From Spirochaetia bacterium (lineage in GTDB: Bacteria; Spirochaetota; Spirochaetia; CADAEX01): 64,000 bases of DNA. The position numbers were made by a program, and so were the translations under genes. The DNA is taken from positions 1,472,001-1,536,000 of the forward strand of contig OY759746.1 of NCBI GenBank assembly GCA_963662795.1, written 5' to 3'. Positions 35,212 through 50,602 of this stretch are shown piece after piece. The notes beneath the pieces are model-generated. The model made no database searches. It had not been told where the DNA came from and saw nothing but the letters and a program-made list of their open reading frames with translations. Position 1 is the first letter of the stretch. Each line of letters opens with the position of its first letter.

Positions 35212-35256
35212 ACAGCAGTCAATATTATACTGAACTTATAATTCAAGGCGGAGAAA

Positions 35257-35889: not shown

Positions 35890-35922
35890 CAGATTTCCCT
35901 TTTCCGCCGATAATTTTTACAG

Positions 35923-36627
35923 ATGAAACATATTAGTGTTCCGGCTTCGGTATTGCTGATCCTCCTGCTTTCCGCTTCTGCCGCATCGGGCCAGGGGCGT
36001 GATTATCCGGTATTTGACGCAGAATTCTGGTTTTTTAATGAACATGAACCCCTCTTTTCAGGTCCGGAACAGGATATCAGGAAACCCGGGACAGGGGATG
36101 ACACACGGAAAAAAATTGAGCAGCTTCTAGAAGAGGCATCGTTTGCTTTTTCGGGAATGATATACGGTTTCAATTTCAGCTATACTCCTTCGGATATTTC
36201 AAGAGGGGTCGATGAAATGTTTGAGTTTACACCTGCTGCCGTTATCCGGAAAGGGGATCCTGCCCTTACTGTAAAAAAAACCCGCAGGGATAAAGAGAAG
36301 ACTTATGTTTCAATTGAATACCGGTGTGATGAAAGACATGGAAACTGGATATCATACTGGAACAGCGCAGCTTTTCCTGTTACCGGCGGCAGCGGAAAGG
36401 GAATCCCTGATGCCGCTCCTGATGCGAGAAAAAACGCGGCAGCCGATGCGGTAAAGGAAGCTGTCAGGGAGTATATGAGGGGACGGGTTCATAATAAACC
36501 AAGAAGCATTTCAGGCAGCTGTGTTTTTTCAGAACCTCCCGTGATTACACATATGGCAGGACTTTATAACGCGTCAGTTAAAATCAGGCTTGAAGTTAAA
36601 GATGTGGAACGATACACTGTTTTTTAA
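35923..36627 (+). CDS. Conserved spirochete-type exported hypothetical protein
   Basis: Signal peptide; FSGMIYGFNFSYTPSD motif. Confidence 0.65.
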   Translation: MKHISVPASVLLILLLSASAASGQGRDYPVFDAEFWFFNEHEPLFSGPEQDIRKPGTGDDTRKKIEQLLEEASFAFSGMIYGFNFSYTPSDISRGVDEMFEFTPAAVIRKGDPALTVKKTRRDKEKTYVSIEYRCDERHGNWISYWNSAAFPVTGGSGKGIPDAAPDARKNAAADAVKEAVREYMRGRVHNKPRSISGSCVFSEPPVITHMAGLYNASVKIRLEVKDVERYTVF

Positions 36628-36649
36628 ATAAAGTGGTGCGGAGATATCT

Positions 36650-37510
36650 ATGGAAATAATACTTACCGGCACAGCCGCCAGTTTTAATATTCCGGCCTTC
36701 AGGTGCGTATGCGATGTATGCAGGCAGGCGCGCGAAAGCAGGGACAGGAAATTGAAAAGGAGAAACAGCTGTGCCGTAGTAACCGGAGATCATGGCGAGA
36801 AAATTCTGATAGACGCCCCGCCTCAGTTCATGAACCAGCTTGAGCTGTGCGGTATAGATGATACCGGGATTGATTCCCTTCTTCTGACTCACAGGCATGA
36901 AGACCATGTGCTTGGCCTTTTTTATATGCTTTCGCTTAAAAAATCCAAAGGCGGTATTGTAAGAACTCCTCTTAAAGTATACCTCGGCACTGATACCTAT
37001 AATTCAATTGCGGCAAATTTCAAGACACTTGCAAATGCTGAAAAAATGGAAGATCTTGACGGAATAATCGAGTTCCGGACAATAAATGAGCTTGAGGAAT
37101 TCCGTCCCGGAAGCATTAGTGTTACACCGCTTGAGACTAACCACCTTAACGCTAAATATTTATCCTCTACAGGGGAAAAGGAACAGTCGTTCGGTTTTCA
37201 TTTTTCTGAAAGGGGAAAGAACCTTTATTATCTTGTGGATGCAGCTAAAACACTGCCTGCAAAAACAATCGACTTCATGAAGAGAAGAAGACCTTCCTGC
37301 ATTATAGTTGACTGCACATATGAAAAATCAGAAGAGTCCTCCGGACACGGTGATATAGAAAGCGTAATGGCCCTTCGGGACCTTTTTCCCGAGGGGAGAA
37401 TGATTATCTCACACCTCGGGCATAAAAACCTCACCCCTGAAAGGCTTGCATCAGTTTTCGATAAAGAGGGTATTGAAGTCGGCTATGACGGACTTAAGGT
37501 TGTTGTCTGA
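36650..37510 (+). CDS. PhnP-like metallo-beta-lactamase-fold phosphodiesterase
   Basis: GTAAS..P..CxCxxC zinc motif, THRHEDH, DCT, SHLGH. Confidence 0.82.
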   Translation: MEIILTGTAASFNIPAFRCVCDVCRQARESRDRKLKRRNSCAVVTGDHGEKILIDAPPQFMNQLELCGIDDTGIDSLLLTHRHEDHVLGLFYMLSLKKSKGGIVRTPLKVYLGTDTYNSIAANFKTLANAEKMEDLDGIIEFRTINELEEFRPGSISVTPLETNHLNAKYLSSTGEKEQSFGFHFSERGKNLYYLVDAAKTLPAKTIDFMKRRRPSCIIVDCTYEKSEESSGHGDIESVMALRDLFPEGRMIISHLGHKNLTPERLASVFDKEGIEVGYDGLKVVV

Positions 37511-37525
37511 TTAACCGGAAATGTT

Positions 37526-38269
37526 TCAATTGATGAGGCTGAAATGGTTAAGGATATCTTCAAGTCCTTCAGCAAGGCTTTTGTCGGAACAGTAGAGGGC
37601 CGCTTTCTTTACCGCGTCCCCGGCGTTTGACGGCGCTGCGCTGAATCCTGTTTTTACCATAAACGGGATATCAACTTCTGAATCACCCACACCCAGGATG
37701 GCCTCAAGGGGAACTCCGCTCTCTCTGGAGAGGAAGTCTATCCCTTTTCCCTTGTGAAAACCTTTAGGGATAATATTAATGCTGTCGGATGAATAGATTA
37801 TATCAAAACTGCCGCAGAGCTTTCCGCCGGCTTCAAGAATCAGCTCTTTGAGGCGCGGCGTAATGCTTTTATCCCTGCTGAAAAGGCTTAATGAGTAATC
37901 CTTTCCCCCCTGCATGATTGCCTGCCCTCTTTTGACAAGGGTTCTGTTTATTATTTTTTTAAGATTTTCAAGCTCATCAAGGCAAATGAGATCAGGGTGT
38001 GCCTTAAACACATAATCTTTGGGGTTGTATAACCCGGTACCGTGTTCAAACACGGCAGGGGCGAACCCGTGAATTGCCTGAAGAAGCGATTCAACATAGG
38101 TGCCGGGCCTCCCCGTAATTACAGTAACCGGCGGAAGGCTCCGGTCAGCTGATGCCTTGTCGTTCATCTCTGCAAGGAGCTTTACTATCCTGCCGGAGTA
38201 AAAAGCCCCCTTTGATTTTGATATTACGCCGTCGATATCAAGCGCGATCAGTTTTATTGTGTTTTCCAT
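37526..38269 (-). CDS. HAD-superfamily phosphatase, subfamily IIB (Cof/SPP-like)
   Basis: LDIDGV, ITGR, KGKG, GVGDSEVD, APSNA. Confidence 0.88.
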   Translation of the reverse strand: MENTIKLIALDIDGVISKSKGAFYSGRIVKLLAEMNDKASADRSLPPVTVITGRPGTYVESLLQAIHGFAPAVFEHGTGLYNPKDYVFKAHPDLICLDELENLKKIINRTLVKRGQAIMQGGKDYSLSLFSRDKSITPRLKELILEAGGKLCGSFDIIYSSDSINIIPKGFHKGKGIDFLSRESGVPLEAILGVGDSEVDIPFMVKTGFSAAPSNAGDAVKKAALYCSDKSLAEGLEDILNHFSLIN

Positions 38270-38327
38270 AAGTATCTGCCTTTATAATCCTCTGTCCGCT
38301 GACGCTGTATTACTGTTTTTGAGCCTT

Positions 38328-39191
38328 TTATGCGTCTTCATACACTTTTGCCAGTATATCGATACTTGCGCTGAAAGCTCCCAGGATATCCTGCTCCTTA
38401 AATCTTTCAGGGCTCAGTTCAAGGTTGTAAAGCCCCCTGTACCCGCCGGCCTTAAGCAGTTTTACATTATTTAATATCGGGATTGTGCCGCAGGTAAGCG
38501 GCCAGTGGGTCGCGTCTGTTCCCGGGTAAAGATCGTGAATATGGGTGTGTATTGCCCCTTTAATAAATTCCGGAACAGGATATTCCGCAATAATGCCCCT
38601 CCCGTAATTTGACCAGGCATGCCCCATGTCCCAGCATAATCCTATACTGCCGCTGTTTGTCTCTGCAGCTGCGGAAACAAGATCCTTATAATCAACCGCC
38701 GGATCCGGGAAACCCTTGTCCCTCTGATTTTCATAGGCGATAACAACCGGCAGTTTTTTATTTTCAATTTCCCTGCAGAGGTGGCTTAATATCGATACTG
38801 ATTTTTTATAATTCTCTTCTATGCTTTTCCCTCTGGTTTTAACAGGATGCATTGTTATTACAAGCGGTTTCCCGTCAGGCTGTGAGGCGTTTTCAAGATA
38901 TGCCGGGAGCCACGGCATGCTTTGCATGATATCGAGTGAATCGTAATTTTCTTCAACTTCTCCATGTACTGTTATCTGAAAACCGGCATCGCTTACTGTT
39001 TTAAAACCCTTCCCCGCATGGGCAAGTATTTCTTCCTGCCAGTGCCTGAATTCTATTGAGGAGACTCCCTTTTCTTTCAGTGACTCCAGAAAACTACCTA
39101 TGGTGTGATTCTGTTTCTTAATAGCTGTGCTTCCTTCATCTGTATACAATCCTGAGATGAAAGGCCATGGTAAAGATACTCCAATATTCAT
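38328..39191 (-). CDS. Sugar-phosphate isomerase/epimerase, xylose-isomerase-like TIM barrel (start set at MNIGVS)
   Basis: YEN, CWDMGH, HTHIHD, THWP..G, YNLE metal ligands; AAGGGG SD before 39191. Confidence 0.82.
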   Translation of the reverse strand: MNIGVSLPWPFISGLYTDEGSTAIKKQNHTIGSFLESLKEKGVSSIEFRHWQEEILAHAGKGFKTVSDAGFQITVHGEVEENYDSLDIMQSMPWLPAYLENASQPDGKPLVITMHPVKTRGKSIEENYKKSVSILSHLCREIENKKLPVVIAYENQRDKGFPDPAVDYKDLVSAAAETNSGSIGLCWDMGHAWSNYGRGIIAEYPVPEFIKGAIHTHIHDLYPGTDATHWPLTCGTIPILNNVKLLKAGGYRGLYNLELSPERFKEQDILGAFSASIDILAKVYEDA

Positions 39192-39220
39192 ATATACCCC
39201 TTTCTTATATACTGATAATA

Positions 39221-39301
39221 TGTAATAAATCTTGCAAAATGTCATCACTAAAAACCTGTAATGAAAATATAATTGCATTTATGACATAATAATTATATAA
39301 T
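39221..39301. promoter_or_regulatory. Divergent promoter region with two candidate RpiR operators
   Basis: TGTAA-N6-TTGCA (39221-36) and TGAAA-N6-TTGCA (39262-77); TTGCAT, 17 bp, TATAAT (39273-39301). Confidence 0.55.
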
Positions 39302-39322
39302 TGGGAAAAAGGAGCATGTATC

Positions 39323-40231
39323 ATGAACTGCTATAAAAAGATTTTAAATACCTATGATTCTCTCCCGAAACAGCAGAAAAAGATCGCAGATTACATCGTG
39401 TTAAATATCAACGAAGTTGTGTTTTTTTCAATAACAATGCTCGCTTCAGAGCTCAGTGTAAGTGAAGCCACTATTGTCAGGTTTGCCCAGAATCTGGGTT
39501 ACAAGGGTTTTCCGGAACTTAAAAAAGACCTTGTCCATTATTATCAGAATTATCTGACTCCGGGCGAAAGGCTTAAAAATTCAATTGAGATCCTCGCGGG
39601 CGGGGCTTTCTCGTTTGAAAAGGCGATGAGACACGAACTTAAATGCCTTGAAGAGACAATTGATACTGTCAACGCCTCAATGTTTACAGATATTGTAGAT
39701 TCAATCTGTAAAAAGGATAAAATTTTTATTTTCGGGTTGGGTCTCAGCAACGAACCGATAGTAAATTATCTCTCATTCCGCCTTCGGAGATTCGGCCTTG
39801 ATGTCAGGGATGCGCCCCATTCGGGCAGCAATATGATGGAGTGCATTCCTTCAATCAGAAAAAATGATCTTGTAATAATCTATCAGTTCCTTAAAGCCTC
39901 CCCCGACTACTACAGCCTTACCAATGCACTCCAGAGCACCGGCGCTACCCTGTTTCTTATTACTGACAATAAAAAACTGGATCTTGTAAAAGCGGTCGAC
40001 AAGGTAATTACTGTTAACCGCGGTCCGGTTGAAAATTATCATACGCTTACTGTCCCCTTTACCGTTACAAGCGCGATTATTCTCGGTGTTGCTGAAAAAA
40101 TGGGTGATAAGGCTATTGATTTTACATCAAAGATAGGTCAGCTGCGGCGCGGATACTATCAAAGCATGCATGAGGCATTTCTGCCCTACAATAAGGGAGA
40201 AATTATAAAAGAAGATGTTAAGGAGGATTAA
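39323..40231 (+). CDS. RpiR/MurR family transcriptional regulator (HTH plus SIS)
   Basis: KKIADYI, SEATIVRFAQNLGYKGFPELK, IFIFGLG, LITD. Confidence 0.93.
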   Translation: MNCYKKILNTYDSLPKQQKKIADYIVLNINEVVFFSITMLASELSVSEATIVRFAQNLGYKGFPELKKDLVHYYQNYLTPGERLKNSIEILAGGAFSFEKAMRHELKCLEETIDTVNASMFTDIVDSICKKDKIFIFGLGLSNEPIVNYLSFRLRRFGLDVRDAPHSGSNMMECIPSIRKNDLVIIYQFLKASPDYYSLTNALQSTGATLFLITDNKKLDLVKAVDKVITVNRGPVENYHTLTVPFTVTSAIILGVAEKMGDKAIDFTSKIGQLRRGYYQSMHEAFLPYNKGEIIKEDVKED

Positions 40232-41556
40232 TGGGTATTGTAAAGGCAAATGATATCAGGGGTATATATCCGGATGAGCTGAATGAAGAGACAGCCTGGA
40301 GGATCGGATTTTACCTTAAGGAAGTATTAGGCTGTAAAAAGATTCTCATAGGAAGAGACGGCCGGAGATCCTCAGATATTCTATTCAGTTCGCTTTGCGC
40401 CGGCATAACAGCGTCAGGTGCGGATGCTGTTTCAATCGGCAGGTGCGATACCCCTGCTGTATATTTTGCGACAGCCGGATATGGATTTGAAGGGAGTGTT
40501 ATGATAACGGCTTCCCATAATCCGCCGCACTACAACGGATTCAAGATTTCCGGAAAAGATTCAGTTCCGGTCGGGAAAGAAGACGGGCTTAACGTTCTGG
40601 GCGAATTGATCAGGGTAAAACCTGCTGCTTCTGCAGGAAAGGGGACAATCACAGAACTCGATATTACGGAAGATTATATAAATCATGCAGTCAGATTTGC
40701 CAAAGTGGAAAAACCCCTTAAGGTTGTTGTCGACTGCTCACAGGGTGCTGCCTGCTTTTTCGGGAAAAAAATACTCGCTGGTGTCGCATCTGAATTTATC
40801 TATATTTTTGATGAGCCGGACGGTTCTTTCTCTCTCCATGATCCTAATCCGCTTAAAAAAAGTGTCCATGAAATTGTTGCGCAGGCAGTAATCAGGGAAA
40901 ACGCCGATTTCGGAGTCTGTTTTGACGGAGATGCTGACAGGGCTGTTTTTTTTGATGAGAAAGGCCGTTTTATCTCGCCTGACATTATTACATCATTTTT
41001 TGCATCCTACTACTCGGGCGCGGAAAAAGGGTGGAAAGCTTTTTACGATGTCAGATCATCAAATTGTGTACGGGAATATATAGAAAAAAACGGCGGTGAG
41101 GCATCAGCCTGCAGGACCGGGCATTCCCATATAAAAAAAATAATGAAAGAAAGCAATGCGGTTTTTGCAGGAGAGCTTTCAGGCCATTATTATTTCAGGG
41201 ACAACTTTTTCTGCGATTCCGGGTTCATTGCTTTTCTTATAGTGCTTTCCGCCCTTTCCTCCCAGGAAAAAAAATTAAGCGCTCTTTTAAGCGATATAAA
41301 TCCTTACAGTTTTTCGGGTGAAATTAATTTTGAGGTAAGTGATATAGAGCAGGCAATAAAAAGGATCGGGGAGCACTACAGTCATGGGAAGATTGATACG
41401 ACAGAAGGCTTAAGAATTAATTTTGATGACTGGTGGTTTATTGTAAGACAGTCCACAGCAGAGCCTGTCCTGAGGCTTGTGGTTGAGGCGGACAATGATG
41501 AAATAATGAAAAAACATATAAGCGGTATAACTGATGTTATTAAAAACAGGGGATAA
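40231..41556 (+). CDS. Phosphomannomutase/phosphoglucomutase (paralog 1)
   Basis: ANDIRG, TASHNP, FDGDADR, GELSGH, RQSTAEPVLR. Confidence 0.93.
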   Translation: MGIVKANDIRGIYPDELNEETAWRIGFYLKEVLGCKKILIGRDGRRSSDILFSSLCAGITASGADAVSIGRCDTPAVYFATAGYGFEGSVMITASHNPPHYNGFKISGKDSVPVGKEDGLNVLGELIRVKPAASAGKGTITELDITEDYINHAVRFAKVEKPLKVVVDCSQGAACFFGKKILAGVASEFIYIFDEPDGSFSLHDPNPLKKSVHEIVAQAVIRENADFGVCFDGDADRAVFFDEKGRFISPDIITSFFASYYSGAEKGWKAFYDVRSSNCVREYIEKNGGEASACRTGHSHIKKIMKESNAVFAGELSGHYYFRDNFFCDSGFIAFLIVLSALSSQEKKLSALLSDINPYSFSGEINFEVSDIEQAIKRIGEHYSHGKIDTTEGLRINFDDWWFIVRQSTAEPVLRLVVEADNDEIMKKHISGITDVIKNRG

Positions 41557-41559
41557 AAA

Positions 41560-41601
41560 ATTTAATATGATATGAAAGATTATTTTCATATCATATTAAA
41601 T
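41560..41601. repeat. Perfect 18-bp inverted repeat with 6-nt spacer
   Basis: ATTTAATATGATATGAAA-GATTAT-TTTCATATCATATTAAAT. Confidence 0.9.
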
Positions 41602-41614
41602 ATGAAAATAATTG

Positions 41615-41666
41615 TTTACAAAAGAAAATAATTGCTCTATAATTTACAAAAGAAAATTATTTTACA
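41615..41666 (+). promoter_or_regulatory. Sigma70-type promoter with adjacent candidate operator
   Basis: TTTACA (41615-20), 17 bp, TATAAT (41638-43); AGAAA-N6-TTACA at 41651-66; TTTACAAAAGAAAAT occurs twice. Confidence 0.6.
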
Positions 41667-41906
41667 TGATGGAAATAATCAGAAAGATTATTTGTATTTG
41701 GCAGTTTACTTTGTTGTCCGTTTTTTCTCTTTTATCAGCGGAGCCCCGGGGTAAAATGCAGTATTTCTGATAAACCATCAAACATGGCTGAAAACTTCAC
41801 AATTGTAAAACATCAGCCTGAAGAGGAATACCGGGAAGCTGTAAAAGTTGAAGAAACGGTGCTGTATATTCCACTTCATCATAGGTAAATAAATTTTGGA
41901 GGAGCC

Positions 41907-42698
41907 GTGTCTCTTAAAGCTATTTTTTTTGATTTCGGAGGAACCCTGGATCTTTATCCGGATGTTCCCGAAAAAAGTGCTGCCGCTGCCGGGAAGATGC
42001 TTGATCTTCTGGAATCCGCGGGCCTTGATATGAAAAACAGATTCAGCAATGAAGAATTTTATCATTTTGTCAGGGATAAAAACAGGGAGTATAAAAAGTG
42101 GAAAGACGAAACCCTGATCGAACTTCCGGAGAAAAAAGTCTGGAAAGATTATATTCTCTGCAATGAGTCAAGGAAGGAGCTTCTGGACTGCAATACCGTA
42201 AGGGAACTTACATATCTGATGGACAATGGTTTTCATTCAAGACATGTGAGACCCGAGGCTAAGGAGGCCCTTGAAATCCTGAAACAATACGGACTTGTCA
42301 TGGGAATAATCAGCAATGTCCTAAGTTCCCTCCAGGTACCCAGAGATCTGGAACGTTATGGGTTAGCGGATTTTTTTAATCCTGTTGTAACATCAGCTGA
42401 TTTTGGCAGAGTAAAACCCCATTCTTCAATTTTTTCTCATGCAGTCGAAGCAGCCGGCCTTGAGGCCAGTGAATGTGTTTATGTCGGCAACAGTCCCGTG
42501 AGTGACATACAGGGAGCAAAGGATGCCGGTTTTAAGGCCGCTGTTTTGATCAATTATGAACATACTCCGCTGCGCGACAGAATGACACATGTGAAACCTG
42601 ATTATTATATTGAGAATCTGCTTGAGCTTCCCGCTATAATCGGAATGCTGCTGGAAGAAGGTTCTTTTATTAATCCGGTTTGCCGCGCGAAAAAATAA
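41907..42698 (+). CDS. HAD-superfamily hydrolase, subfamily IA
   Basis: FFDFGGTL, ISN, KPH..IF, VGNSPVSD; GTG start with GGAGGAG SD. Confidence 0.9.
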   Translation: MSLKAIFFDFGGTLDLYPDVPEKSAAAAGKMLDLLESAGLDMKNRFSNEEFYHFVRDKNREYKKWKDETLIELPEKKVWKDYILCNESRKELLDCNTVRELTYLMDNGFHSRHVRPEAKEALEILKQYGLVMGIISNVLSSLQVPRDLERYGLADFFNPVVTSADFGRVKPHSSIFSHAVEAAGLEASECVYVGNSPVSDIQGAKDAGFKAAVLINYEHTPLRDRMTHVKPDYYIENLLELPAIIGMLLEEGSFINPVCRAKK

Positions 42699-42728
42699 AG
42701 CGGTGAAATATTTTTTATGTAGTTAATT

Positions 42729-42765
42729 ATCCGGCTGAAATATCTTACTGCTGTTTCAGCCGGAT
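42729..42765 (+). repeat. Intergenic 12-bp inverted repeat (RNA hairpin)
   Basis: ATCCGGCTGAAA...TTTCAGCCGGAT with no U-tract. Confidence 0.6.
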
Positions 42766-42811
42766 CTGATATTACAGTTAAATAGCCTGGGAAAGGAGTT
42801 GCTGAATAAAT

Positions 42812-43900
42812 ATGGCAAATAAAGTTAAACTGAAAATTGAAAACCTGTCCAAGATATGGGGGGATGTAAAGGCAATAGACAATATTTCAATGGAAATTGA
42901 GGAAGGAAGTTTTTTAACACTGCTCGGCCCTTCCGGCTGCGGTAAAACAACAACTTTAAGATCTATCGCCGGGCTTGAAGAGCCTACTAACGGTAAAATA
43001 TTTATTAATAATAAACTTGTTTATTCAAAAAAAGAAGAAATTGTTGTTGAGCCGGTAAAGAGGGATATTGGACTGATTTTTCAGTCTTATGCCCTTTGGC
43101 CGCACATGACAGTCTACGACAATATTGCTTTCAGCCTTTTATTGAAAAAAATTCCCAAAGACGAAGTAAGCAGAAGAGTCAACGCTATGCTCAGGAATGT
43201 TCATCTGGAAGAACTCGGCGGACGGTTCCCGAATGAACTTTCAGGAGGACAGCAGCAGAGGGTCGCTATAGCGAGAATGCTGATTACATCACCTGACATT
43301 TTTCTTATGGATGAGCCGCTTTCAAATCTTGACGCAAAGCTCAGAATGGGGATGAGGAGCGAATTAAAGAGACTCCACCAGGAGTCGGGCGCTACAACTG
43401 TATATGTTACACATGACCAGGAAGAGGCAATGACAATGTCTACCCATATCTGTGTAATGAAAGACGGTGTAATCAGGCAGCTGGATTCACCTGAGACGCT
43501 TTACAGAAAGCCCGCAGATCTTTTTGTGGCTGATTTTATCAGCAACCCCAAGATGAATTTTTATGATGCTGTTGCAGCACGGGAAAATGGAAAGACTTAT
43601 ATTTCTTTTGCGGGTTTCAGGATTAATGTTGATTCCGGTCTTATCGGAGAGAGAAAAGAAGTAAAAGTTGCGGTACGGCCTGAAGATTATATCCTGGACC
43701 CGAATGGTTCTGATTTCAGGGTTATAACACAGCTCCCGACAGGCCCTGATCAGATACTGAACCTTGAAAAGGATGGCCTTTCCACAACCATGGTTTCTCC
43801 GGATTACATTAAGGTTAATCCGGGTGAAAATATCAGAATCGGAATCAGGGAAGGGGTATACAACCTGTTTGATACTTCAACTGAAAAAAGAATTTATTAG
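42812..43900 (+). CDS. MalK/PotA-type ABC ATP-binding protein
   Basis: GPSGCGKT, FQSYALWPHM, LSGGQQQR, DEPLSNLDAKLR, VTHDQ, C-terminal TOBE with RPE. Confidence 0.94.
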   Translation: MANKVKLKIENLSKIWGDVKAIDNISMEIEEGSFLTLLGPSGCGKTTTLRSIAGLEEPTNGKIFINNKLVYSKKEEIVVEPVKRDIGLIFQSYALWPHMTVYDNIAFSLLLKKIPKDEVSRRVNAMLRNVHLEELGGRFPNELSGGQQQRVAIARMLITSPDIFLMDEPLSNLDAKLRMGMRSELKRLHQESGATTVYVTHDQEEAMTMSTHICVMKDGVIRQLDSPETLYRKPADLFVADFISNPKMNFYDAVAARENGKTYISFAGFRINVDSGLIGERKEVKVAVRPEDYILDPNGSDFRVITQLPTGPDQILNLEKDGLSTTMVSPDYIKVNPGENIRIGIREGVYNLFDTSTEKRIY

Positions 43901-43984
43901 AGATATTTATTTATTCCAGGATAAATTTGAAAACAGCCGGCAGAATGTTTTGTATTGCCGCAAATAAATTTTCGGAGAAATATT

Positions 43985-45337
43985 TTGGGTGTTTTTAACG
44001 CAAATGACATCAGAGGGATCTTTGATAAAGAGTGGGACCTTACTACAGCATACAGAATCGGTTATTTTCTCCCTGAGATCCTTGACTCTGATATCATAGT
44101 TGTAGGCCGTGATGCGCGCCTTACCTCGGGACAAATCTTTGATCATCTCTGCAGCGGGATAAACGACGCGGGAGCTGATGTAATTGATATCGGCCTCTGC
44201 GATACTCCTGCCATGTATTTTACTGTCGGAATGTACGGGTTTGGAGGGGGAGCCATGATTACAGCTTCACACAATCCTGCTGAATATAATGGAATTAAAA
44301 TTGTAAGAAAAGGACCGACGGCCATAGGTTATAAAGACGGAATTGCTGAGCTGGAGAAAATGGTAAATGAGAGCAAGGAACGTGAACCGGATAAAAAAAA
44401 GAAGAAAGGCCGGATAGTCTTTAAAAATATTGAAAAAGACTATATCAGTTTTTATTCTGAATATACAAAAAATATAGGTAATCTTAAAATTGTTGTGGAC
44501 TGTTCAAACGGCAGCGCAGGTGTTTACGGAAGAAAAATTCTTGCAGGAAGCAATGTGAATGCTGTTTATATTAACGAAAAACCTGACGGACACTTCCCCG
44601 GACACGGTCCTGACCCCATGAAAAGTGAAAACCTTGCGCAGCTCTCTGAATCTGTAAAAAATGAGAAAGCGGATATCGGACTCTGTTTTGACGGAGATGC
44701 TGACCGTGTTGTTTTTATTGATGAGAACGGAAATCCGGTCTCTCCTGATATGATAATTGCGATTCTGGGTAAATATTTTTTAAAGAACGGAAAAGAGACA
44801 ATACTGTATGATCTAAGATGTTCAAACGGTATTGCCGAGTTTATTTCCGAATGCGGCGGAGAAGCTGTAATGTGTCCTGTCGGGCATGTATTTTTAAAGA
44901 AAAAATTAAAAGAAACGGGAAGCGCTTTCGGTGGTGAACTTGCCGGGCACTATTATTTCCGAGACTTCTTTTTCTGCGATTCAGGATGGATGACAGCGCT
45001 CCTTGTACTGAGCGTTCTTTCGAAGATTGACGGAGGGGAGAAGCTGTCAGACATGGTAAGCACCATTAGAAAATATTATTTTTCAGGAGAACTCAACTTT
45101 CCGGTAAACGGAGGGGACAGGGAAAGTCTTTATTCCATGCTTAAGGAAAAATATAAAGATGGAGTAAAAAATGAAATCGACGGCATACGAATTGATTATC
45201 CCGACTGGTGGTTTGTTGTAAGGAGATCTACCAATGAACCGCTTGTAAGACTGATTGTTGAAACAAAAACAGAAAATGAGCTCGAAAACAGAATTAAAGA
45301 GCTTGCCGGATTGATCCAGACTTCAGGCAGCAAATAG
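43985..45337 (+). CDS. Phosphomannomutase/phosphoglucomutase (paralog 2; TTG start after GGAGA)
   Basis: FNANDIRG, TASHNP, FDGDADR, GELAGH, RRSTNEPLVR. Confidence 0.93.
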   Translation: MGVFNANDIRGIFDKEWDLTTAYRIGYFLPEILDSDIIVVGRDARLTSGQIFDHLCSGINDAGADVIDIGLCDTPAMYFTVGMYGFGGGAMITASHNPAEYNGIKIVRKGPTAIGYKDGIAELEKMVNESKEREPDKKKKKGRIVFKNIEKDYISFYSEYTKNIGNLKIVVDCSNGSAGVYGRKILAGSNVNAVYINEKPDGHFPGHGPDPMKSENLAQLSESVKNEKADIGLCFDGDADRVVFIDENGNPVSPDMIIAILGKYFLKNGKETILYDLRCSNGIAEFISECGGEAVMCPVGHVFLKKKLKETGSAFGGELAGHYYFRDFFFCDSGWMTALLVLSVLSKIDGGEKLSDMVSTIRKYYFSGELNFPVNGGDRESLYSMLKEKYKDGVKNEIDGIRIDYPDWWFVVRRSTNEPLVRLIVETKTENELENRIKELAGLIQTSGSK

Positions 45338-45353
45338 AAAAGGCAGGTACGGA

Positions 45354-46109
45354 ATGACTAACGTAAAAACTGATGTGTCGGAAATTGATTTTATTTTTTT
45401 TGACAAAGGCGGGACTTTAAGTTATCAGGAACCGCATGAAGACGGAGGGGTAGCAGCGGCGAAAGAGATAATGGATTTTCTCGGATATAAGGGCGACCCG
45501 TCAGAGTTCCGGAAGATGCTTAAGGAACGGGACAAAAAATACAAGAATTGGTCTCTTGAATCATGCTGTGAAGAAACAGTCGAGAATATGTGCGTGAAAT
45601 GGTATTTTTATGACGCACCGGATTTAACAAAAGCGGCTGATAACGCGGACAGGCTTATTAGAATGAATTCCTATGTCAAGGGCGAGAGAATAATGCATGC
45701 TGAGGCCGCCCCTCTTTTAAAAACACTTAGGGAAAGAGGTTACAGGGTGGGCCTAATAAGCAATACCGTAAGTCCTACAATGGTCCCTGAAGAGCTGAAG
45801 GAAGCGGGTATTTTTGATGGCCTTGAAGTTGTTATATTGTCATCTGTCGAAAGACTGCGCAAACCGGACCCGGCGATTTTTCTTCTTGCGTGCGAGAGGG
45901 CAGGTGTTGCCCCTGAAAAATGTGCCTACATCGGAGATGCCCCGAACCGGGATGTCGAAGGACCGAGAAGGGCGGGTTTTGCATCTGTAGTAATAATAAG
46001 CGGCAAAAACTATAATCCTGAATCTGATAAAGGGGCTCTGAGAGAGCCGGACGTTGTAGTTGCAAATCTTGCCGGTCTTTATGAAGTTTTCCCGGAAAAA
46101 AGGGGTTAG
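45354..46109 (+). CDS. HAD-superfamily hydrolase, subfamily IA (paralog of 41907)
   Basis: FFDKGGTL, ISN, RKPDPAIF, IGDAPNRD. Confidence 0.9.
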   Translation: MTNVKTDVSEIDFIFFDKGGTLSYQEPHEDGGVAAAKEIMDFLGYKGDPSEFRKMLKERDKKYKNWSLESCCEETVENMCVKWYFYDAPDLTKAADNADRLIRMNSYVKGERIMHAEAAPLLKTLRERGYRVGLISNTVSPTMVPEELKEAGIFDGLEVVILSSVERLRKPDPAIFLLACERAGVAPEKCAYIGDAPNRDVEGPRRAGFASVVIISGKNYNPESDKGALREPDVVVANLAGLYEVFPEKRG

Positions 46110-46115
46110 CCAGAT

Positions 46116-47174
46116 ATGAGAGACGGAGGATTGGAAATGAAGAGCAGAAGAATAACAGACTGCCGCTTTACCGGAGCGTGGATGACAGATATTGATGACA
46201 CAATAATCAGGTCAGGTGAAATGCCGGATGAAAACTGGGTTAAATGGATCTCTTCCAGAATTGAAAAATTAAACAGCCATAACATTTTGTGGATACCTAT
46301 GAGCGGTGTAGCCCTTGTAAAACTGGGACCCAGGATCCTTTACCGGCTGCCTGAAAACATACTTGATTCAGTCCTTTATTACGGCGGAGACGGAAGCCAG
46401 AAATACTATTTTGATAAGGCAGCCGGAAAATGGGCGGAAGACCTCGACTACAAAAGGGTGTTCACGGATGAACAGGCCCTTGCAGTAATAGGAAAGGATG
46501 AGTTTCTGAAAACAGTTCATGATGAAGGGCGGTATGAAAAGGCGGCCTCTGCACTTGCTGAAGGAAGATTTAAATCAGAAAACGGAATACTTGACACAAT
46601 GAAAAAGATGCTTTCCGATAACGGCTATGATCCGGACCTTTCTGAGACATACTTCCGCGGAGGCTCTGTGAGCTGGATGATGCTGGGAGATATATCTGCC
46701 GAACCCTATAAAACAGAGAAAGCGGCAGAGGTCAGAAGGAAACTTATTGAATACGCGGAAAAGACCCTTGAGGAAGAAGGTTTCCTTAAGCGTTTTGGAA
46801 AAGAGGGGATAAATATTCCATTTCACGGGGCCCGCGGGATAAAATTTGTTATGATGGGCAACGACAAGGAAAGAGGAACGCGTGACCTGGTGGAAAAGGA
46901 AGGGATAAAGCCTGAAAACATTGTATTTGCGGGAAACGAACTTTTCGCTGGCGGAAACGATAACATGATCAGGAAAGTAAAGGGTGTGACCATATTGTCT
47001 GTAGGTGAAAAGACAGATCCGGGAGAGCATGTGATAGCTGCGGGGGAGGGGATTGAAGCGAACAACCTGTGGCTTGATGAGATATGCGGTTCACTTGACA
47101 GGGGTGAGAAATGGGAAGATATTTTTGCAGCCATAAGAATCCAGGGAAAAAAATGGATAGGAAATAAATTATGA
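46116..47174 (+). CDS. HAD-IIB enzyme resembling HAD-type phosphomannomutases
   Basis: TDIDDT motif I, MSG motif II, NDK, FAGNELFAGGND motif IV. The start may be at MKSRR. Confidence 0.65.
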   Translation: MRDGGLEMKSRRITDCRFTGAWMTDIDDTIIRSGEMPDENWVKWISSRIEKLNSHNILWIPMSGVALVKLGPRILYRLPENILDSVLYYGGDGSQKYYFDKAAGKWAEDLDYKRVFTDEQALAVIGKDEFLKTVHDEGRYEKAASALAEGRFKSENGILDTMKKMLSDNGYDPDLSETYFRGGSVSWMMLGDISAEPYKTEKAAEVRRKLIEYAEKTLEEEGFLKRFGKEGINIPFHGARGIKFVMMGNDKERGTRDLVEKEGIKPENIVFAGNELFAGGNDNMIRKVKGVTILSVGEKTDPGEHVIAAGEGIEANNLWLDEICGSLDRGEKWEDIFAAIRIQGKKWIGNKL

Positions 47175-48529
47175 ATGAAGCGTTTAAATCAGGCTGTGTA
47201 AGAGGTCCTTACCCCCGGCAGTGGGATGCGGTTACTGCCTACAGGATAGGCAGGTATCTTCCTTCATTGCTTGATACGGAAAGTATTGTTATAGGACGTG
47301 ACGCAAGGCTTTCCTCTGTTGAAATTTTTGAACATCTGGCAAAAGGGATATCAGAAAGCGGAGCCGATGTATTTGATATCGGCCTTGTCGATACCCCCGC
47401 CCTTTATTTTGCAAATGTAAAATATGATTTCAGCGCATCGCTGATGATAACCGCTTCGCATAACCCCGCGGGAGACAACGGGCTTAAAATACACCGCGGC
47501 AACGCAGTCCCGGTAGACGGCAAAACCGGGCTTAAAGAGCTTGAAGCTCTCATAGAAACTGCTCCGCCTGAGCCGGCTGGAAAAAAGGGGAAAATAGAAT
47601 ATCTTGATATAGAAAAGGATTATTTGTCCCTTCTCGAAACATTCACGCACGGGATAAAAAAACTCAAAGTTGTACTTGACTGTTCTTCCGGAAGCGCCGG
47701 AAGGTTTATACATAAGATCTTAAAGATGATTCCCCAGGGCGAGTTTATAATTTTAAACGATAAGCCGGATGGCAGTTTTCCTGCACACGGACCTAATCCG
47801 CTTAAAGAATCAAGCCAGATTCAGATCAGGGAAAAAATAGCAGAGGCTAATGCTGATTTCGGCATAATTTTTGACGGAGACTGCGACAGGACAATATTTA
47901 TTACAGGGAAAGGCGATATGGTTATGCCTGACCTTATCCTGCCGTATCTGGCAAGGTATTATTTTATCCACTTCCCGGAAAAAAAGAAAGGGGACGACGG
48001 GATAATATATGACCTCAGGTGTTCAAGCAATGTCCGTGAATATGTGGAAAAGCTGGGCGGAAAGGCGCATCAGTGTAAAACCGGTCATACCGCGATACAG
48101 TCTGCCATTCACGGTAATAAAGGGCTTATAGGGGCAGAGCTTGCGGGGCACTACTATTTTCGGGATTTTTACGGACAGGACTCAGCTTATATCGCAATGC
48201 TTATGTCTTTCGCAATTGCATCAAACAGCACCCGGAAATTCTCTGAAGAGATCAGGGAAATTGAGAAATATGCTTTTTCCGGTGAAATAAACTTCAGGGT
48301 AAAAAACAGTATTGGAGTTCTGGATGAACTTCAAAAAGTTTATACCGCTATCGGCGCTAAAATTGACAGGAGCGAAGGAGTCAAAGCTGTTTTGGGCAAC
48401 TGGTGGTTCCTTGCGAGGGTATCAAATACCGAGCCAGTGCTGAGGCTTGTTGTTGAAGCAGATGACAGGGATACAATGAAGAAAAAAGTTGAAGAGCTGA
48501 CAAAAATAATTACAGGAGAACCCGGGTAA
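47171..48529 (+). CDS. Phosphomannomutase/phosphoglucomutase (paralog 3, divergent)
   Basis: FKSGCVRG, TASHNP, FDGDCDR, AELAGH, RVSNTEPVLR. Confidence 0.92.
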   Translation: MNEAFKSGCVRGPYPRQWDAVTAYRIGRYLPSLLDTESIVIGRDARLSSVEIFEHLAKGISESGADVFDIGLVDTPALYFANVKYDFSASLMITASHNPAGDNGLKIHRGNAVPVDGKTGLKELEALIETAPPEPAGKKGKIEYLDIEKDYLSLLETFTHGIKKLKVVLDCSSGSAGRFIHKILKMIPQGEFIILNDKPDGSFPAHGPNPLKESSQIQIREKIAEANADFGIIFDGDCDRTIFITGKGDMVMPDLILPYLARYYFIHFPEKKKGDDGIIYDLRCSSNVREYVEKLGGKAHQCKTGHTAIQSAIHGNKGLIGAELAGHYYFRDFYGQDSAYIAMLMSFAIASNSTRKFSEEIREIEKYAFSGEINFRVKNSIGVLDELQKVYTAIGAKIDRSEGVKAVLGNWWFLARVSNTEPVLRLVVEADDRDTMKKKVEELTKIITGEPG

Positions 48530-48581
48530 AAACCGCCTTACGGCTGCACCCCGGGCTCCATTAAATAATCAGGAGACAGTC

Positions 48582-49463
48582 ATGAAAAAAGAATACAACA
48601 TAGTATCAATCGGTCATGTGACAAATGATGTGAGAAACATGATGGGAACAAAAACACCGTTTGTCGGGGGGGCGGCTTTCTTTTCTCCCCATGCGGCTAA
48701 AAGGTCAGGGGCGGATGTTCTTGTAATTACCAAGATGGCCCAGAAGGACAGGCATACACTTTCCACCCTTACGGATGCCGGTATTGATGTTCTTCCTCTT
48801 CCTTCAAAAGCAACTACGTCAATTGAGAACATATTTGTCACGGAGGACCAGGACAACAGGAAGCTTAAGCTTCTGTCCCTTGCAGACCCGTTCAGCGCGG
48901 ATGAGGTCCCGTCAGATATAAAAGCAGAGGTTTTTCATATCGCCGCCCTTTTCAGCGGAGAAGTTCCGGATGAAATGATTAAAAGCCTTTCAAAGAGGGG
49001 TAAAGTCGCCCTTGACCTTCAGGCTGCGCTCCGCTACATAGGGGAGGAAGATGTTTATTTCGAGGACTGGAAGGACAAGGAAAAATATCTTCCCTACGCT
49101 TATTATATCAAGGCAGACTCTCTTGAAATAAAGGTAATAACCGGGACCGATGACAGGGAAAAGGCGGCTAAGATACTTTACGGATGGGGCGGTAAAGAGA
49201 TAGTCATAACAAGAAAAGATGAAGTTCTCGTTTATGACGGTAAAAATTTCTATAGAGCGCCGTTTAACGCGAAAAACCTTGACGGCAGGGCAGGAAGAGG
49301 CGACACCTGTTTTCTCTCATACATTACAAGAAGATTCACACACACACCTGATGAGGCAACTCACTACGCGGCAGCCCTTACAAGCATCAAGATGGAGAAA
49401 TCAGCGCCGTTTTCAGGAACTGTCCAGGATGTTCTTGACAGGATGAAGACTCAAGTCTACTGA
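48582..49463 (+). CDS. PfkB/ribokinase-family carbohydrate kinase
   Basis: IGHVTND, VGGAA, LDLQ, KADSLE, GRAGRGDTCF anion-hole motif. Confidence 0.88.
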   Translation: MKKEYNIVSIGHVTNDVRNMMGTKTPFVGGAAFFSPHAAKRSGADVLVITKMAQKDRHTLSTLTDAGIDVLPLPSKATTSIENIFVTEDQDNRKLKLLSLADPFSADEVPSDIKAEVFHIAALFSGEVPDEMIKSLSKRGKVALDLQAALRYIGEEDVYFEDWKDKEKYLPYAYYIKADSLEIKVITGTDDREKAAKILYGWGGKEIVITRKDEVLVYDGKNFYRAPFNAKNLDGRAGRGDTCFLSYITRRFTHTPDEATHYAAALTSIKMEKSAPFSGTVQDVLDRMKTQVY

Positions 49464-50587: not shown

Positions 50588-50602
50588 AGCAGGATCTTTG
50601 AG

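Follow-up and report, generated by a model that had tools for sequence, protein, structure and literature searches.

The window analysed here, a 64,000-nucleotide stretch of contig OY759746.1 from a Spirochaetia bacterium, contains a gene cluster in which a sequence-only reading had proposed an undescribed pathway that moves and removes phosphates on an unusual substrate, organized around an RpiR regulator. Every gene listed in that reading was found, full and intact, and the 12 retained genes from mbl to pfkB (13 including hyp234) are full length, with no frameshifts or stops. The features of the locus are:

35923..36627, plus strand: hyp234, exported protein of 234 amino acids with a signal peptide, at the locus edge
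36650..37510, plus strand: mbl, MBL-fold hydrolase, distantly PhnP-like (Lactamase_B_2, TIGR03307)
37526..38269, minus strand: hadIIB, HAD-IIB phosphatase (Hydrolase_3, TIGR01484)
38328..39194, minus strand: tim, divergent xylose-isomerase-like TIM barrel (AP_endonuc_2)
39323..40231, plus strand: rpiR, RpiR/MurR-family regulator (HTH_6 and SIS)
40231..41556, plus strand: pmm1, alpha-D-phosphohexomutase paralog, clade 1 (four PGM_PMM domains)
41557..41906, plus strand: predicted promoter region and 5' remnant of a lost binding-protein gene (alignment to sister loci)
41907..42698, plus strand: hadIA_a, HAD-IA phosphatase (PF00702, PF13419)
42699..42811, no strand: deletion scar where sister loci have a phytase and a fused ABC permease (alignment to locus L081 of genome G002)
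42812..43900, plus strand: malK, MalK/UgpC-type ABC ATPase (ABC_tran, NF008653)
43901..43984, no strand: deletion scar where sister loci have an NHL-repeat propeller lipoprotein (alignment to G002 L081)
43985..45337, plus strand: pmm2, alpha-D-phosphohexomutase paralog, clade 2 (four PGM_PMM domains)
45354..46109, plus strand: hadIA_b, HAD-IA phosphatase, partner of ORF352 (profile matches)
46116..47174, plus strand: ORF352, HAD family with a PMM/alpha-PGM-like fold (motifs, AF2 fold)
47171..48529, plus strand: pmm3, alpha-D-phosphohexomutase paralog, clade 3 (four PGM_PMM domains)
48582..49463, plus strand: pfkB, predicted TM0415-type PPi-dependent (myo-)inositol kinase (PDB 1vk4/5ysp match)

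The three mutases are full-length paralogs, as had been claimed, each of about 450 amino acids and with pairwise identities of 44.3%, 44.6% and 40.5%. For pmm2, the open reading frame list gives a TTG at 43955; we prefer the TTG at 43985 because GGAG precedes it and the orthologs begin MGVFN. Across the whole 3.93-Mb genome there are five matches to PF02878, three of them inside 8.3 kb at the cluster, against a baseline of one or two per genome in 14 family-f1 genomes (genera g2 and g3), where 24 of 26 matches lie in open frames of 570-735 amino acids. Genomes that carry the cluster already have two long PGMs besides the cluster mutases. The trio is accessory, extra mutases being confined to genomes that carry the locus, and the locus is not an ordinary housekeeping PGM/PMM locus. 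A tree of the paralogs, which the reading had suggested, shows three old clades, each separately conserved. TASHNP and DGDxDR are retained in all 19 of 19 cluster mutases, and the Ser position of the sugar loop differs between clades (S, A, T, P). The pmm1 product keeps the TASHNP and DGDADR loops whole and has GELSGH as its sugar loop; its orthologs follow rpiR in G002 and G011, and none occupies that position in G005. The pmm2 orthologs (sugar loop GELAGH) follow the NHL gene in all three of these genomes. The pmm3 clade is the most widely conserved, with 10 rows at support 99/98 that reach distant Spirochaetia, always downstream of ORF352/HAD-IA; pmm3 itself has the sugar loop AELAGH and an N-terminal GC[VI]RG in place of NDIRG. 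No mutase passes any NCBIfam equivalog cut-off (best 358.8 bits versus 618).

Both of the paralogous HAD-IA enzymes that had been noticed are present, at 29% identity to each other. The first, hadIA_a, reaches 132 bits with TIGR02253, under the cut-off, and has syntenic orthologs at 58-80% identity and a 39% homolog in a compact operon of G287; hadIA_b adjoins ORF352 in 14 of 29 related loci. The count of two HAD-IIB enzymes holds for 37526-38269 (Hydrolase_3, 50.9 bits; TIGR01484, 41.9 bits; syntenic orthologs at 51-81% identity in G002, G005 and G011) and fails for 46116-47174, where ORF352 has a PMM-like HAD fold, no Pfam match at E<=0.001 and only 20 bits with TIGR01484. ORF352 carries a DxDxT motif; across 23 sequences TDIDDT is invariant and a GNDN motif is present. 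The structure closest to its AF2 model (pLDDT 90.9) is the atypical alpha-PGM of Lactococcus (4bnd; E 1.7e-13, TMt 0.78-0.80), and eukaryotic PMMs come next. Nine of its 86 homologs are named by organism, all Spirochaet* except one 'subsurface metagenome'. HAD-IA Pfam domains occur in 5 of the 86, and hadIA_b-ORF352 fusions of 566 and 605 amino acids are found in loci L021 and L035. ORF352 is a new Spirochaetia-centred HAD family whose modelled fold is like that of eukaryotic-type phosphomannomutases, and it is a candidate phosphomutase or phosphatase, between which the fold does not distinguish; as a PMM-like HAD it is therefore a possible fourth mutase.

The MBL-fold product scores 68.5 bits with Lactamase_B_2 and 95.4 bits with the PhnP model TIGR03307, so far under the cut-off of 272 that it is not PhnP proper; we regard it as a candidate (cyclic) phosphodiesterase. 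Left by the reading as a neighbour that might or might not belong, it does belong: its synteny is kept in G002, G005 and G011, and homologs at 35-36% identity adjoin mutase/TIM genes in L021, L027 and L030. The TIM-barrel open frame (AP_endonuc_2, 55.1 bits) extends to 39278, with a likely start at 39194, and orthologs lie in seven related loci. The nearest folds to its AF2 model (pLDDT 93.9) are UlaE, ketose 3-epimerases, TM0416 (2zvr/5h1w) and IolI (1i60), at TM 0.6-0.7 and 13-17% identity, which leaves several functions possible. Divergent from the TIM and HAD-IIB genes is rpiR, which shares 90% identity with its G002 counterpart and 74-76% with those of G005 and G011; RpiR regulators usually sense sugar phosphates. 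The product of hyp234 has no Pfam or NCBIfam match and is syntenic beside the MBL gene (80% identity in G002, 42% in G005, 39% in G011; dN/dS 0.14); its membership in the pathway is uncertain.

The kinase is one of two results that point to inositol phosphates as the substrate, the other being the sister loci. It matches TM0415 of Thermotoga maritima (PDB 1vk4, 5ysp) at E 1e-47 over 272 residues, a ribokinase-family enzyme described in PMC5931981 as a PPi-dependent myo-inositol 1-kinase with catalytic residue D234. Mapped by hand on the TM0415 alignment, with residue roles from that paper, the protein keeps the RXGRGD motif (RAGRGD at residues 236-241), five of five PPi-signature residues and the residues that contact inositol; K171, F221, R229, R232, M266, D11, N78, Q141, R145 and D234 of TM0415 are conserved, and S89 is replaced by Leu. 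It is a close TM0415 relative and presumptively a PPi-dependent (myo-)inositol kinase. The Km of TM0415 for inositol is 12 mM, and the authors question whether inositol is what it truly phosphorylates (PMC5931981). The genome encodes two further TM0415-type kinases and also has iolD (930 bits, above the cut-off) and iolB, the iol pathway lying about 100 kb from the cluster. Among the related loci, PF00459 (inositol monophosphatase) and GFO_IDH adjoin the fusion gene in L035, and PhoU_div and PHO4 lie within the cluster in L030.

Neighbourhood comparison, another of the suggested checks, showed that the same locus recurs in other Spirochaetia, as one conserved functional unit around RpiR. The reading was to be abandoned should the three mutases prove alike in ordinary PGM/PMM activity and the cluster prove unconserved elsewhere; since the locus is conserved in other genomes, that ground for abandoning it falls away. 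A complete form is found in the same-genus genome G002, in sister genus g4 and in several more distant Spirochaetia. In G002 the order is hyp234, mbl, hadIIB, tim, rpiR, pmm1, SBP (binding protein), hadIA_a, phytase, permease, malK, NHL and pmm2, with hadIA_b, orf352, pmm3, pfkB and moxR on a second contig; G011 has the same order, and G005 the same minus pmm1. The phytase scores 155.9 bits with PF02333 (cut-off 21). Signal peptides mark it and the SBP for export, and a lipobox is present in the NHL protein. Loci L027, L030 and L034 repeat SBP/phytase, permease, malK, NHL, PMM, HAD-IA/orf352 and PMM, and in L017 the phytase set adjoins hadIA_b, orf352 and tim. Mutases are present in five of six phytase-bearing loci, the sixth ending just past NHL, and in none of seven 'second-type' loci, which have the transporter and orf352 without phytase. 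PF02333 occurs in 4 of 41 relatives (G002, G005, G008 and G011), and ORF352 in those four and G000. The cluster in the window appears to be the intracellular half of a conserved locus to which, in sister genomes, a secreted phytase and an importer also belong; we found no account of such a locus in the literature searched.

On balance we lean towards reading the region as the cytoplasmic part, one half, of a locus that is specific to Spirochaetia and uses phytate-derived inositol phosphates. Among the substrates that had been offered, inositol phosphates have direct comparative backing from the TM0415-type kinase and from the phytase in orthologous loci, and nothing supports teichoic-acid fragments. 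Phytase, permease and binding protein are all absent from the window, and so the phytate link rests on the relatives; PF02333 proteins, moreover, need not all act on phytate. For the complete form we infer that the secreted phytase and NHL lipoprotein would partly dephosphorylate phytate outside the cytoplasm, and that the binding protein, fused permease and MalK-type ATPase would import lower inositol phosphates, an organophosphate being a plausible cargo. Against this, the binding protein matches only iron-type SBPs in the PDB. Inside the cell, the two HAD-IA enzymes and the HAD-IIB enzyme would strip phosphates, the two or three mutase paralogs and ORF352 may move phosphates among ring positions, and the PhnP-like MBL protein might act on a phosphate that is cyclic or a diester. 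The TM0415-type enzyme would use PPi/Pi to turn inositol into inositol monophosphate and back, RpiR would sense a phosphorylated intermediate, and free inositol would pass to the iol pathway. In a pathway that removes phosphates, a kinase producing an inositol phosphate is an unexpected member. To our knowledge alpha-D-phosphohexomutases act on aldose 1-/6-(5-)phosphates only, none on a cyclitol phosphate, and the literature searched names no inositol phosphate mutase.

It is unlikely, although the best of the alternatives, that the locus serves general sugar-phosphate scavenging, with hexose or heptose phosphates imported as by AfuABC, ordinary PGM/PMM/GlcN-P-type mutases of differing hexose specificity feeding glycolysis, HADs trimming surplus phosphate, and the relatives' phytase and NHL genes merely supplying Pi. 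The closest solved mutase structures are indeed Xanthomonas and Pseudomonas PMM/PGM (E 1e-53 to 1e-87), the catalytic and phosphate-binding loops are canonical, and sugar phosphates are the usual RpiR ligands. The sister transporters also have the architecture of AfuABC, a hexose/heptose-phosphate ABC importer with a binding protein, a fused double-domain permease and an ATPase (PMC4546632). However, scavenging leaves unexplained why mutases track phytase-type loci rather than other orf352-transporter loci, and gives no reason for an inositol-specific PPi kinase at the end of the operon. The two long PGMs, the sub-cut-off mutase scores and the variable sugar-loop Ser also argue against it, and no AfuA chain is among the two PDB matches of the sister SBP (YfuA and an iron(III) SBP, E ~1e-5).

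The cluster in this genome is a reduced derivative, which could not be seen in the window by itself. Window positions 35000-41904 align with G002 L081 4284-11234, which ends some 250 bp inside the SBP gene (start at L081 10981), and the next block restarts at L081 12164, leaving the SBP 5' remnant. Window 42656-42770 corresponds to L081 12945-15965, so about 3.0 kb is missing, and window 43898-43966 corresponds to L081 17094-18366, the NHL deletion. An X1 contig (record 5) spans the 42699..42811 junction with no differences, another (record 7) spans the NHL scar at 43901..43984, and a low-depth X8 contig, about 95% alike, has only small indels at 43913-43963.

That the cluster is a decaying leftover, cut off from its substrate and turning into pseudogenes, is distinctly improbable. 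Three deletions removed four genes (phytase, NHL propeller, binding protein and permease); PF02333 has no match across the whole genome; and with the permease and binding protein gone, MalK (ABC_tran, 121 bits; NF008653 UgpC, 341 bits, under the cut-off) is an orphan ATPase. In the nearest transporter paralog, the SBP shares just 52% identity and the permease 73.5% with the lost counterparts. Yet the deletions took exported and membrane genes only, a pattern that looks selective rather than random, and left the cytoplasmic genes intact. The best predicted promoter of the region, TTTACA-17-TATAAT at 41615-41643 (score 11/12), aligns with the sequence ahead of the SBP gene in G002, G005 and G011 and now apparently heads hadIA_a. 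Retained genes show purifying selection, with dN/dS of 0.04-0.14 (malK 0.11, at 84% identity to the G002 cluster ATPase; flanking moxR 0.07), a mean over the entire G000-G002 divergence that does not bear on selection since the deletions. Six related sets of SBP and fused permease, together with iolB/iolD and the additional TM0415-type kinases, indicate active inositol/organophosphate use in this genome. Under the inositol-phosphate reading, the cytoplasmic set probably acts on inositol phosphates that come in through a transporter paralog encoded at 2.60 Mb or that other organisms release. A biosynthetic role, in which mutases give hexose-1-phosphates and the kinase an inositol phosphate for an inositol/sugar-containing solute or envelope glycolipid, is highly improbable. 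Making nucleotide sugars is a common use of PMM/PGM products, and inositol solutes and lipids are built from inositol 1-phosphate, but genes for a nucleotidyltransferase, glycosyltransferase, CDP-alcohol transferase or MIPS are absent from the conserved locus, its complete form has an importer and secreted hydrolases at its core, and phosphatases outnumber any synthetic step.

Beta-propeller phytases of Proteobacteria often adjoin TonB-dependent receptors. PF02333 systems of the Bacillus PhyC type share with the orthologous loci a secreted PF02333 protein, whereas here the phytase gene is embedded among those of an ABC importer, in an operon that also encodes cytoplasmic mutases, HADs and a PPi kinase, and the present genome has lost it. 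Of the importer genes that resemble AfuABC, only the ATPase survives in the window. TM0415 has as neighbours inositol dehydrogenase and hydrolase genes and a sugar-type ABC importer (PMC5931981), while our PfkB closes an operon of mutases and phosphatases. ORF352 has DxDxT and GNDN-type motifs in common with 4bnd of Lactococcus lactis and eukaryotic PMM1/PMM2, but is only 14-18% identical, about 100 residues longer (352 versus ~250 amino acids) and without PF03332 or another Pfam match. Finally, pmm1-3 share the four-domain build and the phosphoserine, metal and phosphate-binding loops of the PMM/PGM subgroup (Xanthomonas citri PGM, 5bmn; Pseudomonas aeruginosa PMM/PGM, 1k35), and differ from it as three co-located paralogs in clades of their own, with the sugar-loop Ser changed to Ala (pmm2, pmm3) or Thr/Pro (distant orthologs), and genomically tied to phytase rather than to polysaccharide synthesis.

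Every gene that the sequence-only reading had named between 36650 and 49463 was borne out by an ORF listing and by Pfam and NCBIfam scans. The locus comprises the following genes, and the window outside it, in a genome of one 3.93 Mb contig, carries housekeeping genes.

36650-37510, MBL hydrolase (Pfam/NCBIfam)
37526-38269, (-) strand, HAD-IIB protein (Pfam/NCBIfam)
38328-39278, (-) strand, TIM barrel with a weak AP_endonuc_2 match; likely start 39194, from orthologs
39323-40231, RpiR regulator (HTH_6 plus SIS)
40231-41556, pmm1, four-domain phosphohexomutase
41907-42698, hadIA_a, HAD-IA protein
42812-43900, MalK/UgpC-type ATPase
43985-45337, pmm2, four-domain phosphohexomutase
45354-46109, hadIA_b, HAD-IA protein
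46116-47174, ORF352, 352 amino acids, no Pfam match
47171-48529, pmm3, four-domain phosphohexomutase
48582-49463, PfkB protein

The regulator has the RpiR/MurR architecture in Pfam, with an N-terminal HTH_6 domain (78.7 bits) and a C-terminal SIS domain (33.4 bits), and the two HAD-IA proteins share 28.8% identity. The MBL hydrolase, which had been described as PhnP-like, scores below the PhnP cut-off (TIGR03307, 95.4 bits versus 272), and a Pfam and neighborhood scan found no phn genes near it; it falls outside PhnP proper. By sequence the TIM barrel matched only MJ1311 in the PDB (E 1.2e-3), and a fold search with an Atlas look-up returned generic xylose-isomerase-like sugar or sugar-phosphate epimerase/isomerase neighbors, which do not separate IolI/IolE/IolO-like from UlaE-like proteins. 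Elsewhere in the window, an MGH1-like (mannosylglycerate-hydrolase-like/trehalase-like) glycoside hydrolase lies amid the housekeeping genes at 28377-29798, and the kinase is followed at 49658-53247 by genes for a MoxR AAA ATPase, a DUF58 protein and a membrane protein with DUF4129, none with an evident pathway link. The latter set also follows the kinase in G002, a genome of the same genus, and in G011 and G005 of the sister genus g4, a chemoreceptor gene being inserted first in G005.

Judging by its sequence, the PfkB protein points to inositol as the theme of the locus. A PDB search returned Thermotoga maritima TM0415, the PPi-dependent myo-inositol kinase, at E 1e-47, as well as a Thermococcus myo-inositol 3-kinase at 5e-7, and the RXGRGD motif of the window's protein reads RAGRGD (residues 236-241). 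In a phmmer alignment to 5ysp, mapped by hand onto published TM0415 numbering (PMC5931981), all five residues of the PPi-donor signature (K171, F221, R229, R232 and M266) and the catalytic D234 are kept. The acceptor residues D11, I76, N78, L116, Q141 and R145 are conserved as well, and S89 is replaced by Leu. According to the TM0415 study, the enzyme forms inositol 1-phosphate from PPi and inositol, substitutions of S89 accompanied a shifted phosphorylation position, and the Km for inositol is 12 mM, which leads its authors to question whether inositol is the real acceptor (PMC5931981). That study also lists 50 candidate PPi kinases, some of them from 'Spirochetes', and orthologs of the window's kinase may be among them.

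Kinases of the TM0415 type are rare in the phylum, occurring in 6 of 301 genomes at E<=1e-40. The window's genome has two more, both with RXGRGD, the third adjoining a Cof-type HAD. The second (45% identical, RTGRGD; G000:C1:1677121-1684047, locus L046 8402-16050, outside the window) lies beside an HD protein, a glycerophosphodiester phosphodiesterase (GDPD) and an ABC importer of the sugar type that has ROK and LacI regulators; an MBL paralog (37% identical) and a TIM barrel of the AP_endonuc_2 family are found approximately 4-5 kb beyond. The arrangement looks like a glycerophosphoinositol-type locus. In genome G287, a compact operon (L085:10186-17707, (-) strand) holds a binding protein (SBP), fused permease, MalK, RpiR, HAD-IA, TIM barrel and TM0415-type kinase (58% identical), with no mutases, ORF352 or phytase, and may be a minimal core of the system. 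The same genome encodes a 529-amino-acid GDPD-kinase fusion (L090:9538-11127, (-) strand; RTGRGD at residue 464) beside an SBP, permeases and a TIM barrel, which would link phosphodiester cleavage to the PPi kinase. In genome G128, a GFO_IDH, TIM-barrel and pfkB group occurs. The surroundings of these kinases thus return to the theme of the window's locus.

Using ORF352 as the marker for a locus search, we found carriers in five of 41 related genomes: the window's own, G002 and all three g4 genomes. The gene order in G002 is hyp234, MBL, HAD-IIB (-), TIM barrel (-), rpiR, pmm1, SBP, hadIA_a, phytase, fused permease, malK, an NHL-propeller lipoprotein gene and pmm2, then, after a contig break, hadIA_b, orf352, pmm3, pfkB and moxR. 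G011 has the same order, and G005 has it without pmm1. The phytase of these orthologous loci belongs to the beta-propeller family PF02333 (155.9 bits); signal peptides are present on the phytase and SBP, and a lipobox on the NHL protein. Among the 41 relatives, PF02333 occurs in four, precisely the ORF352 carriers minus the window's genome. It lies within the orthologous loci of G002, G005 and G011 and also in the more distant loci L017, L027, L030 and L034. Against the PDB (E<=0.001), the SBP of a sister genome gave two weak iron-type SBP matches, with no AfuA chain and no clue to a ligand.

When 185,579 species genomes were scanned by pattern, at least 29 loci in at least 26 assemblies came up, mostly Spirochaetia by contig titles; absences in many of these say little, since the contigs are short (4-8 kb). 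The order SBP/phytase, permease, malK, NHL, PMM, HAD-IA/orf352, PMM recurs in L018, L022, L027, L030 (where the SBP lies ahead of the stretch mapped) and L034, in some with a further HAD-IA flanking HAD-IA/orf352, and in L017 the phytase set adjoins hadIA_b, orf352 and tim. Among the matches listed, five of the six phytase-bearing loci carry mutases, the sixth stopping just after NHL, and none of seven second-type loci, which hold rpiR, SBP, permease, malK and orf352 but no phytase, does so. Phosphate-transport genes (PhoU_div and PHO4) lie within the L030 cluster, and in L035 an orf352-HAD fusion has a GFO_IDH oxidoreductase and a PF00459 inositol monophosphatase as neighbors. Eight listed loci labelled Gammaproteobacteria, Thiotrichales, Omnitrophota or 'Thermoplasmatota' have none of the other cluster genes. 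The second locus type, in which the orf352 is a second copy, is seen in G005 (L009:11398-17538), L024, L025 and L031, with a histidine-phosphatase (His_Phos_1) gene next in G005 and in G008 of genus g4. The window's genome keeps an ortholog of the second-type transporter at approximately 559-562 kb and has a single copy of ORF352.

The best-supported reading is that the locus uses phytate-derived inositol phosphates; the genomic facts are observations, and every substrate assignment is one that we infer. Outside the cytoplasm, the beta-propeller phytase and the NHL propeller would act, and the ABC importer would carry lower inositol phosphates across the membrane. Inside, the HADs would strip phosphates stepwise, the mutases would reposition them, and inositol and inositol phosphate would be exchanged in a PPi-linked reaction, all under the control of RpiR, with inositol handed over to the iol pathway. 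The window's genome has iolD (930.7 bits, above the cut-off) and iolB at 1,622,709-1,625,517, approximately 100 kb downstream of the locus, as well as a membrane H+-PPase (884 bits). The chief competing explanation is that the locus serves ordinary scavenging of hexose phosphates by way of an AfuABC-like importer (PMC4546632); this agrees with the precedent of the mutase family but does not match the specific tie to a phytase and an inositol kinase.

The weakest link of the inositol-phosphate reading is the role of the phosphohexomutases. All three have PGM_PMM_I, II, III and IV above the Pfam cut-offs, with pairwise identities of 44.3%, 44.6% and 40.5%. The hallmarks of alpha-D-phosphohexomutases are a phosphoserine loop, T/SASHNP, and a metal loop, DGDxDR; TASHNP and DGD[ACG]DR are present in all three and in 19 of 19 aligned cluster mutases, and pmm3 has an altered N-terminal motif. 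In the P. aeruginosa PMM/PGM, the Glu and Ser of a sugar-binding loop, GE(M/E/Q)SGH, reportedly contact sugar hydroxyls. The Glu is kept in all cluster mutases aligned, and the Ser position is clade-specific: Ser in pmm1 (GELSGH), Ala in pmm2 and pmm3, and Thr or Pro in distant clades.

No NCBIfam equivalog cut-off (PMM/PGM, GlmM or CpsG) is reached by any of the three, with scores of 352.6, 358.8 and 310.9 bits for NF007088 (cut-off 618), 349.1, 354.8 and 281.3 for TIGR03990 (cut-off 439), and 171-206 for the glmM model TIGR01455 (cut-off 447.55). The five PF02878 matches in the genome are pmm1-3 and two long PGMs (open frames of 587 and 609 amino acids). One or two long PGMs are the baseline in each of the 41 relatives, and extra mutases of approximately 450 amino acids are confined, within family f1, to genomes with the locus. 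These scores and this accessory distribution reject a housekeeping GlmM/PGM role. In a maximum-likelihood tree of 20 sequences (two long PGMs, L058 and L063, being omitted as poorly alignable), pmm1 (three sequences, 100/100), pmm2 (three, 100/100) and pmm3 (ten, 99/98) form clades, and the 'upstream' mutases of distant Spirochaetia group together (three, 85/81). A G008 protein (34% identical, long branch) stands alone beyond the midpoint root, which is a drawing aid only. The cluster mutases are accessory and old.

ORF352 has 86 homologs; the nine with a named organism are all Spirochaet* save one 'subsurface metagenome'. Seven of the 86 are 536-615 amino acids long, and five of these carry HAD-IA Pfam domains, as fusions to the neighboring HAD-IA. 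A TDIDDT motif is invariant in an alignment of 23 sequences. No Pfam family, PMM included, matched at E<=0.001. The AF2 model (pLDDT 90.9) gave as top Foldseek matches the atypical alpha-phosphoglucomutase 4bnd of Lactococcus and eukaryotic phosphomannomutases, by which closest folds ORF352 is a PMM-like HAD; by sequence, the match to 4bnd is local (28.5 bits, residues 55-142). ORF352 is thus a candidate mutase or phosphatase, two activities that fold alone does not separate. In two Thiotrichales-labelled MAG contigs (L037:3295-5772 and L039:5017-7542), the ORF352 domain is N-terminal in 825-841-amino-acid proteins with no Pfam match, directly 3' of a PEP-synthase/PPDK-like gene and its Kinase-PPPase regulator, and in L036 it ends a 1311-amino-acid ORF. 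An Omnitrophota-labelled MAG contig (L029, 21 kb) has two ORF352-like matches 2.2 kb apart and very few long ORFs under table 11, which could reflect another genetic code or poor sequence.

We know of no precedent for phosphohexomutases acting on cyclitol phosphates, nor of inositol-phosphate mutase activity described in their superfamily, and a literature search, with most subscription journals outside its coverage, found no enzyme named inositol phosphate mutase or variants of that name. A bolder form of the inositol-phosphate reading, which we think improbable, is that the pmm paralogs, perhaps with ORF352, are inositol-phosphate mutases feeding a reversed TM0415-type kinase. The mutases would shift the non-adjacent phosphates left by beta-propeller phytase to the ring position used by the kinase, which would run backwards (inositol phosphate + Pi -> inositol + PPi), and an anaerobe whose economy runs on PPi would in this way keep part of the phosphoester energy of phytate in the form of PPi.

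The window's copy is a reduced derivative of the complete locus. The genome has no PF02333 match, and by blastn the window is colinear with G002 (locus L081) at approximately 80% identity save for three deletions. The first, inside the SBP gene, leaves approximately 250 bp of the 5' end and the conserved promoter at 41557-41904; the second, between 42656 and 42770, removes approximately 3.0 kb with phytase and permease; the third, between 43898 and 43966, removes approximately 1.3 kb with the NHL gene. Contigs from sequencing run X1 bridge all three junctions with no difference, a result that is not independent because X1 may be the source sample. A low-depth contig from a groundwater run (X8), approximately 95% alike, spans the third junction and lends weak independent support to that deletion. 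In run X3, a fraction of 0.91 of sampled words was present, and contigs cover the conserved ABC part only. No RNA runs with the locus appeared among 22 listed.

A further rival, which we think unlikely, is that this copy is a decaying remnant. Against it, all remaining cluster genes are intact, the promoter is retained, and the deletions are limited to exported or membrane genes; dN/dS versus G002, averaged over the whole divergence, is 0.043-0.137 in the cluster and 0.070 in the flanking moxR. The promoter argument uses the conserved site at 41615-41643 alone, from a scan giving 34 promoter-like sites, where shuffles gave 25.6 +/- 5.7, and 20 terminator-like sites, where they gave 13.9 +/- 4.0. 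Between pmm1 and this promoter lies a perfect 18-nucleotide inverted repeat (ATTTAATATGATATGAAA / TTTCATATCATATTAAAT; 41560-41601), whose GAAAG...TTTCA core is kept in G002, G005 and G011 and which may be an operator.

The nearest remaining transporter (G000:C1:2597493-2602524; L045 9457-14596, (-) strand) includes a hadIA_b paralog (62% identical). Its permease and SBP share 73.5% and 52% identity with their counterparts in the G002 cluster, versus 80-92% for true orthologs, so it is a paralog of the lost set, not a moved ortholog; its MalK stands at 68%. The set adjoins a calcineurin-like phosphoesterase. Six SBP sets of the cluster type occur in the genome, with fused permeases 44-74% identical to the cluster permease in five and 36% in the sixth. 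Teichoic-acid fragments, proposed earlier as a possible substrate, and the archaeal pentose-bisphosphate pathway were both dropped, the host being a spirochaete and the locus having no nucleoside phosphorylase or R15P isomerase.

Phytate is the largest organic-phosphorus pool of soils and sediments, and to our knowledge bacterial phytate use ends, on paper, with secreted phytases. Literature searches, with most subscription journals outside their coverage, found no phytase locus with phosphomutases, no gene cluster of phytase, phosphomannomutase and ABC transporter, no phytate/PGM operon and no description of a phytate SBP; beta-propeller phytase with spirochaetes returned unrelated work only. 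Searches on PPi-dependent inositol kinases found neither physiological context nor a follow-up of TM0415 context. The locus suggests an intracellular continuation, in which lower inositol phosphates would be imported and then processed by HAD phosphatases, phosphomutases and an inositol kinase that uses PPi. As such, it would provide the first physiological context for the PPi-dependent kinases of the ribokinase family, a group in search of a role since 2018. It also singles out specific proteins that may extend the phosphohexomutase superfamily to a new class of substrates, and it adds ORF352 as a new PMM-like HAD family.

Compared with a beta-propeller phytase utilization locus, the window lacks the PF02333 gene that its orthologous loci have, and of an AfuABC-type importer (AfuA-like SBP, fused permease and ATPase) it retains the ATPase only; it is a natural 'cheater-like' derivative keeping the cytoplasmic half alone. 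Like the HAD-type PMM/alpha-PGM enzymes, ORF352 is predicted to have a HAD core with DxDxT, an IIB-type cap and a similar fold, but by sequence it falls outside their Pfam family.
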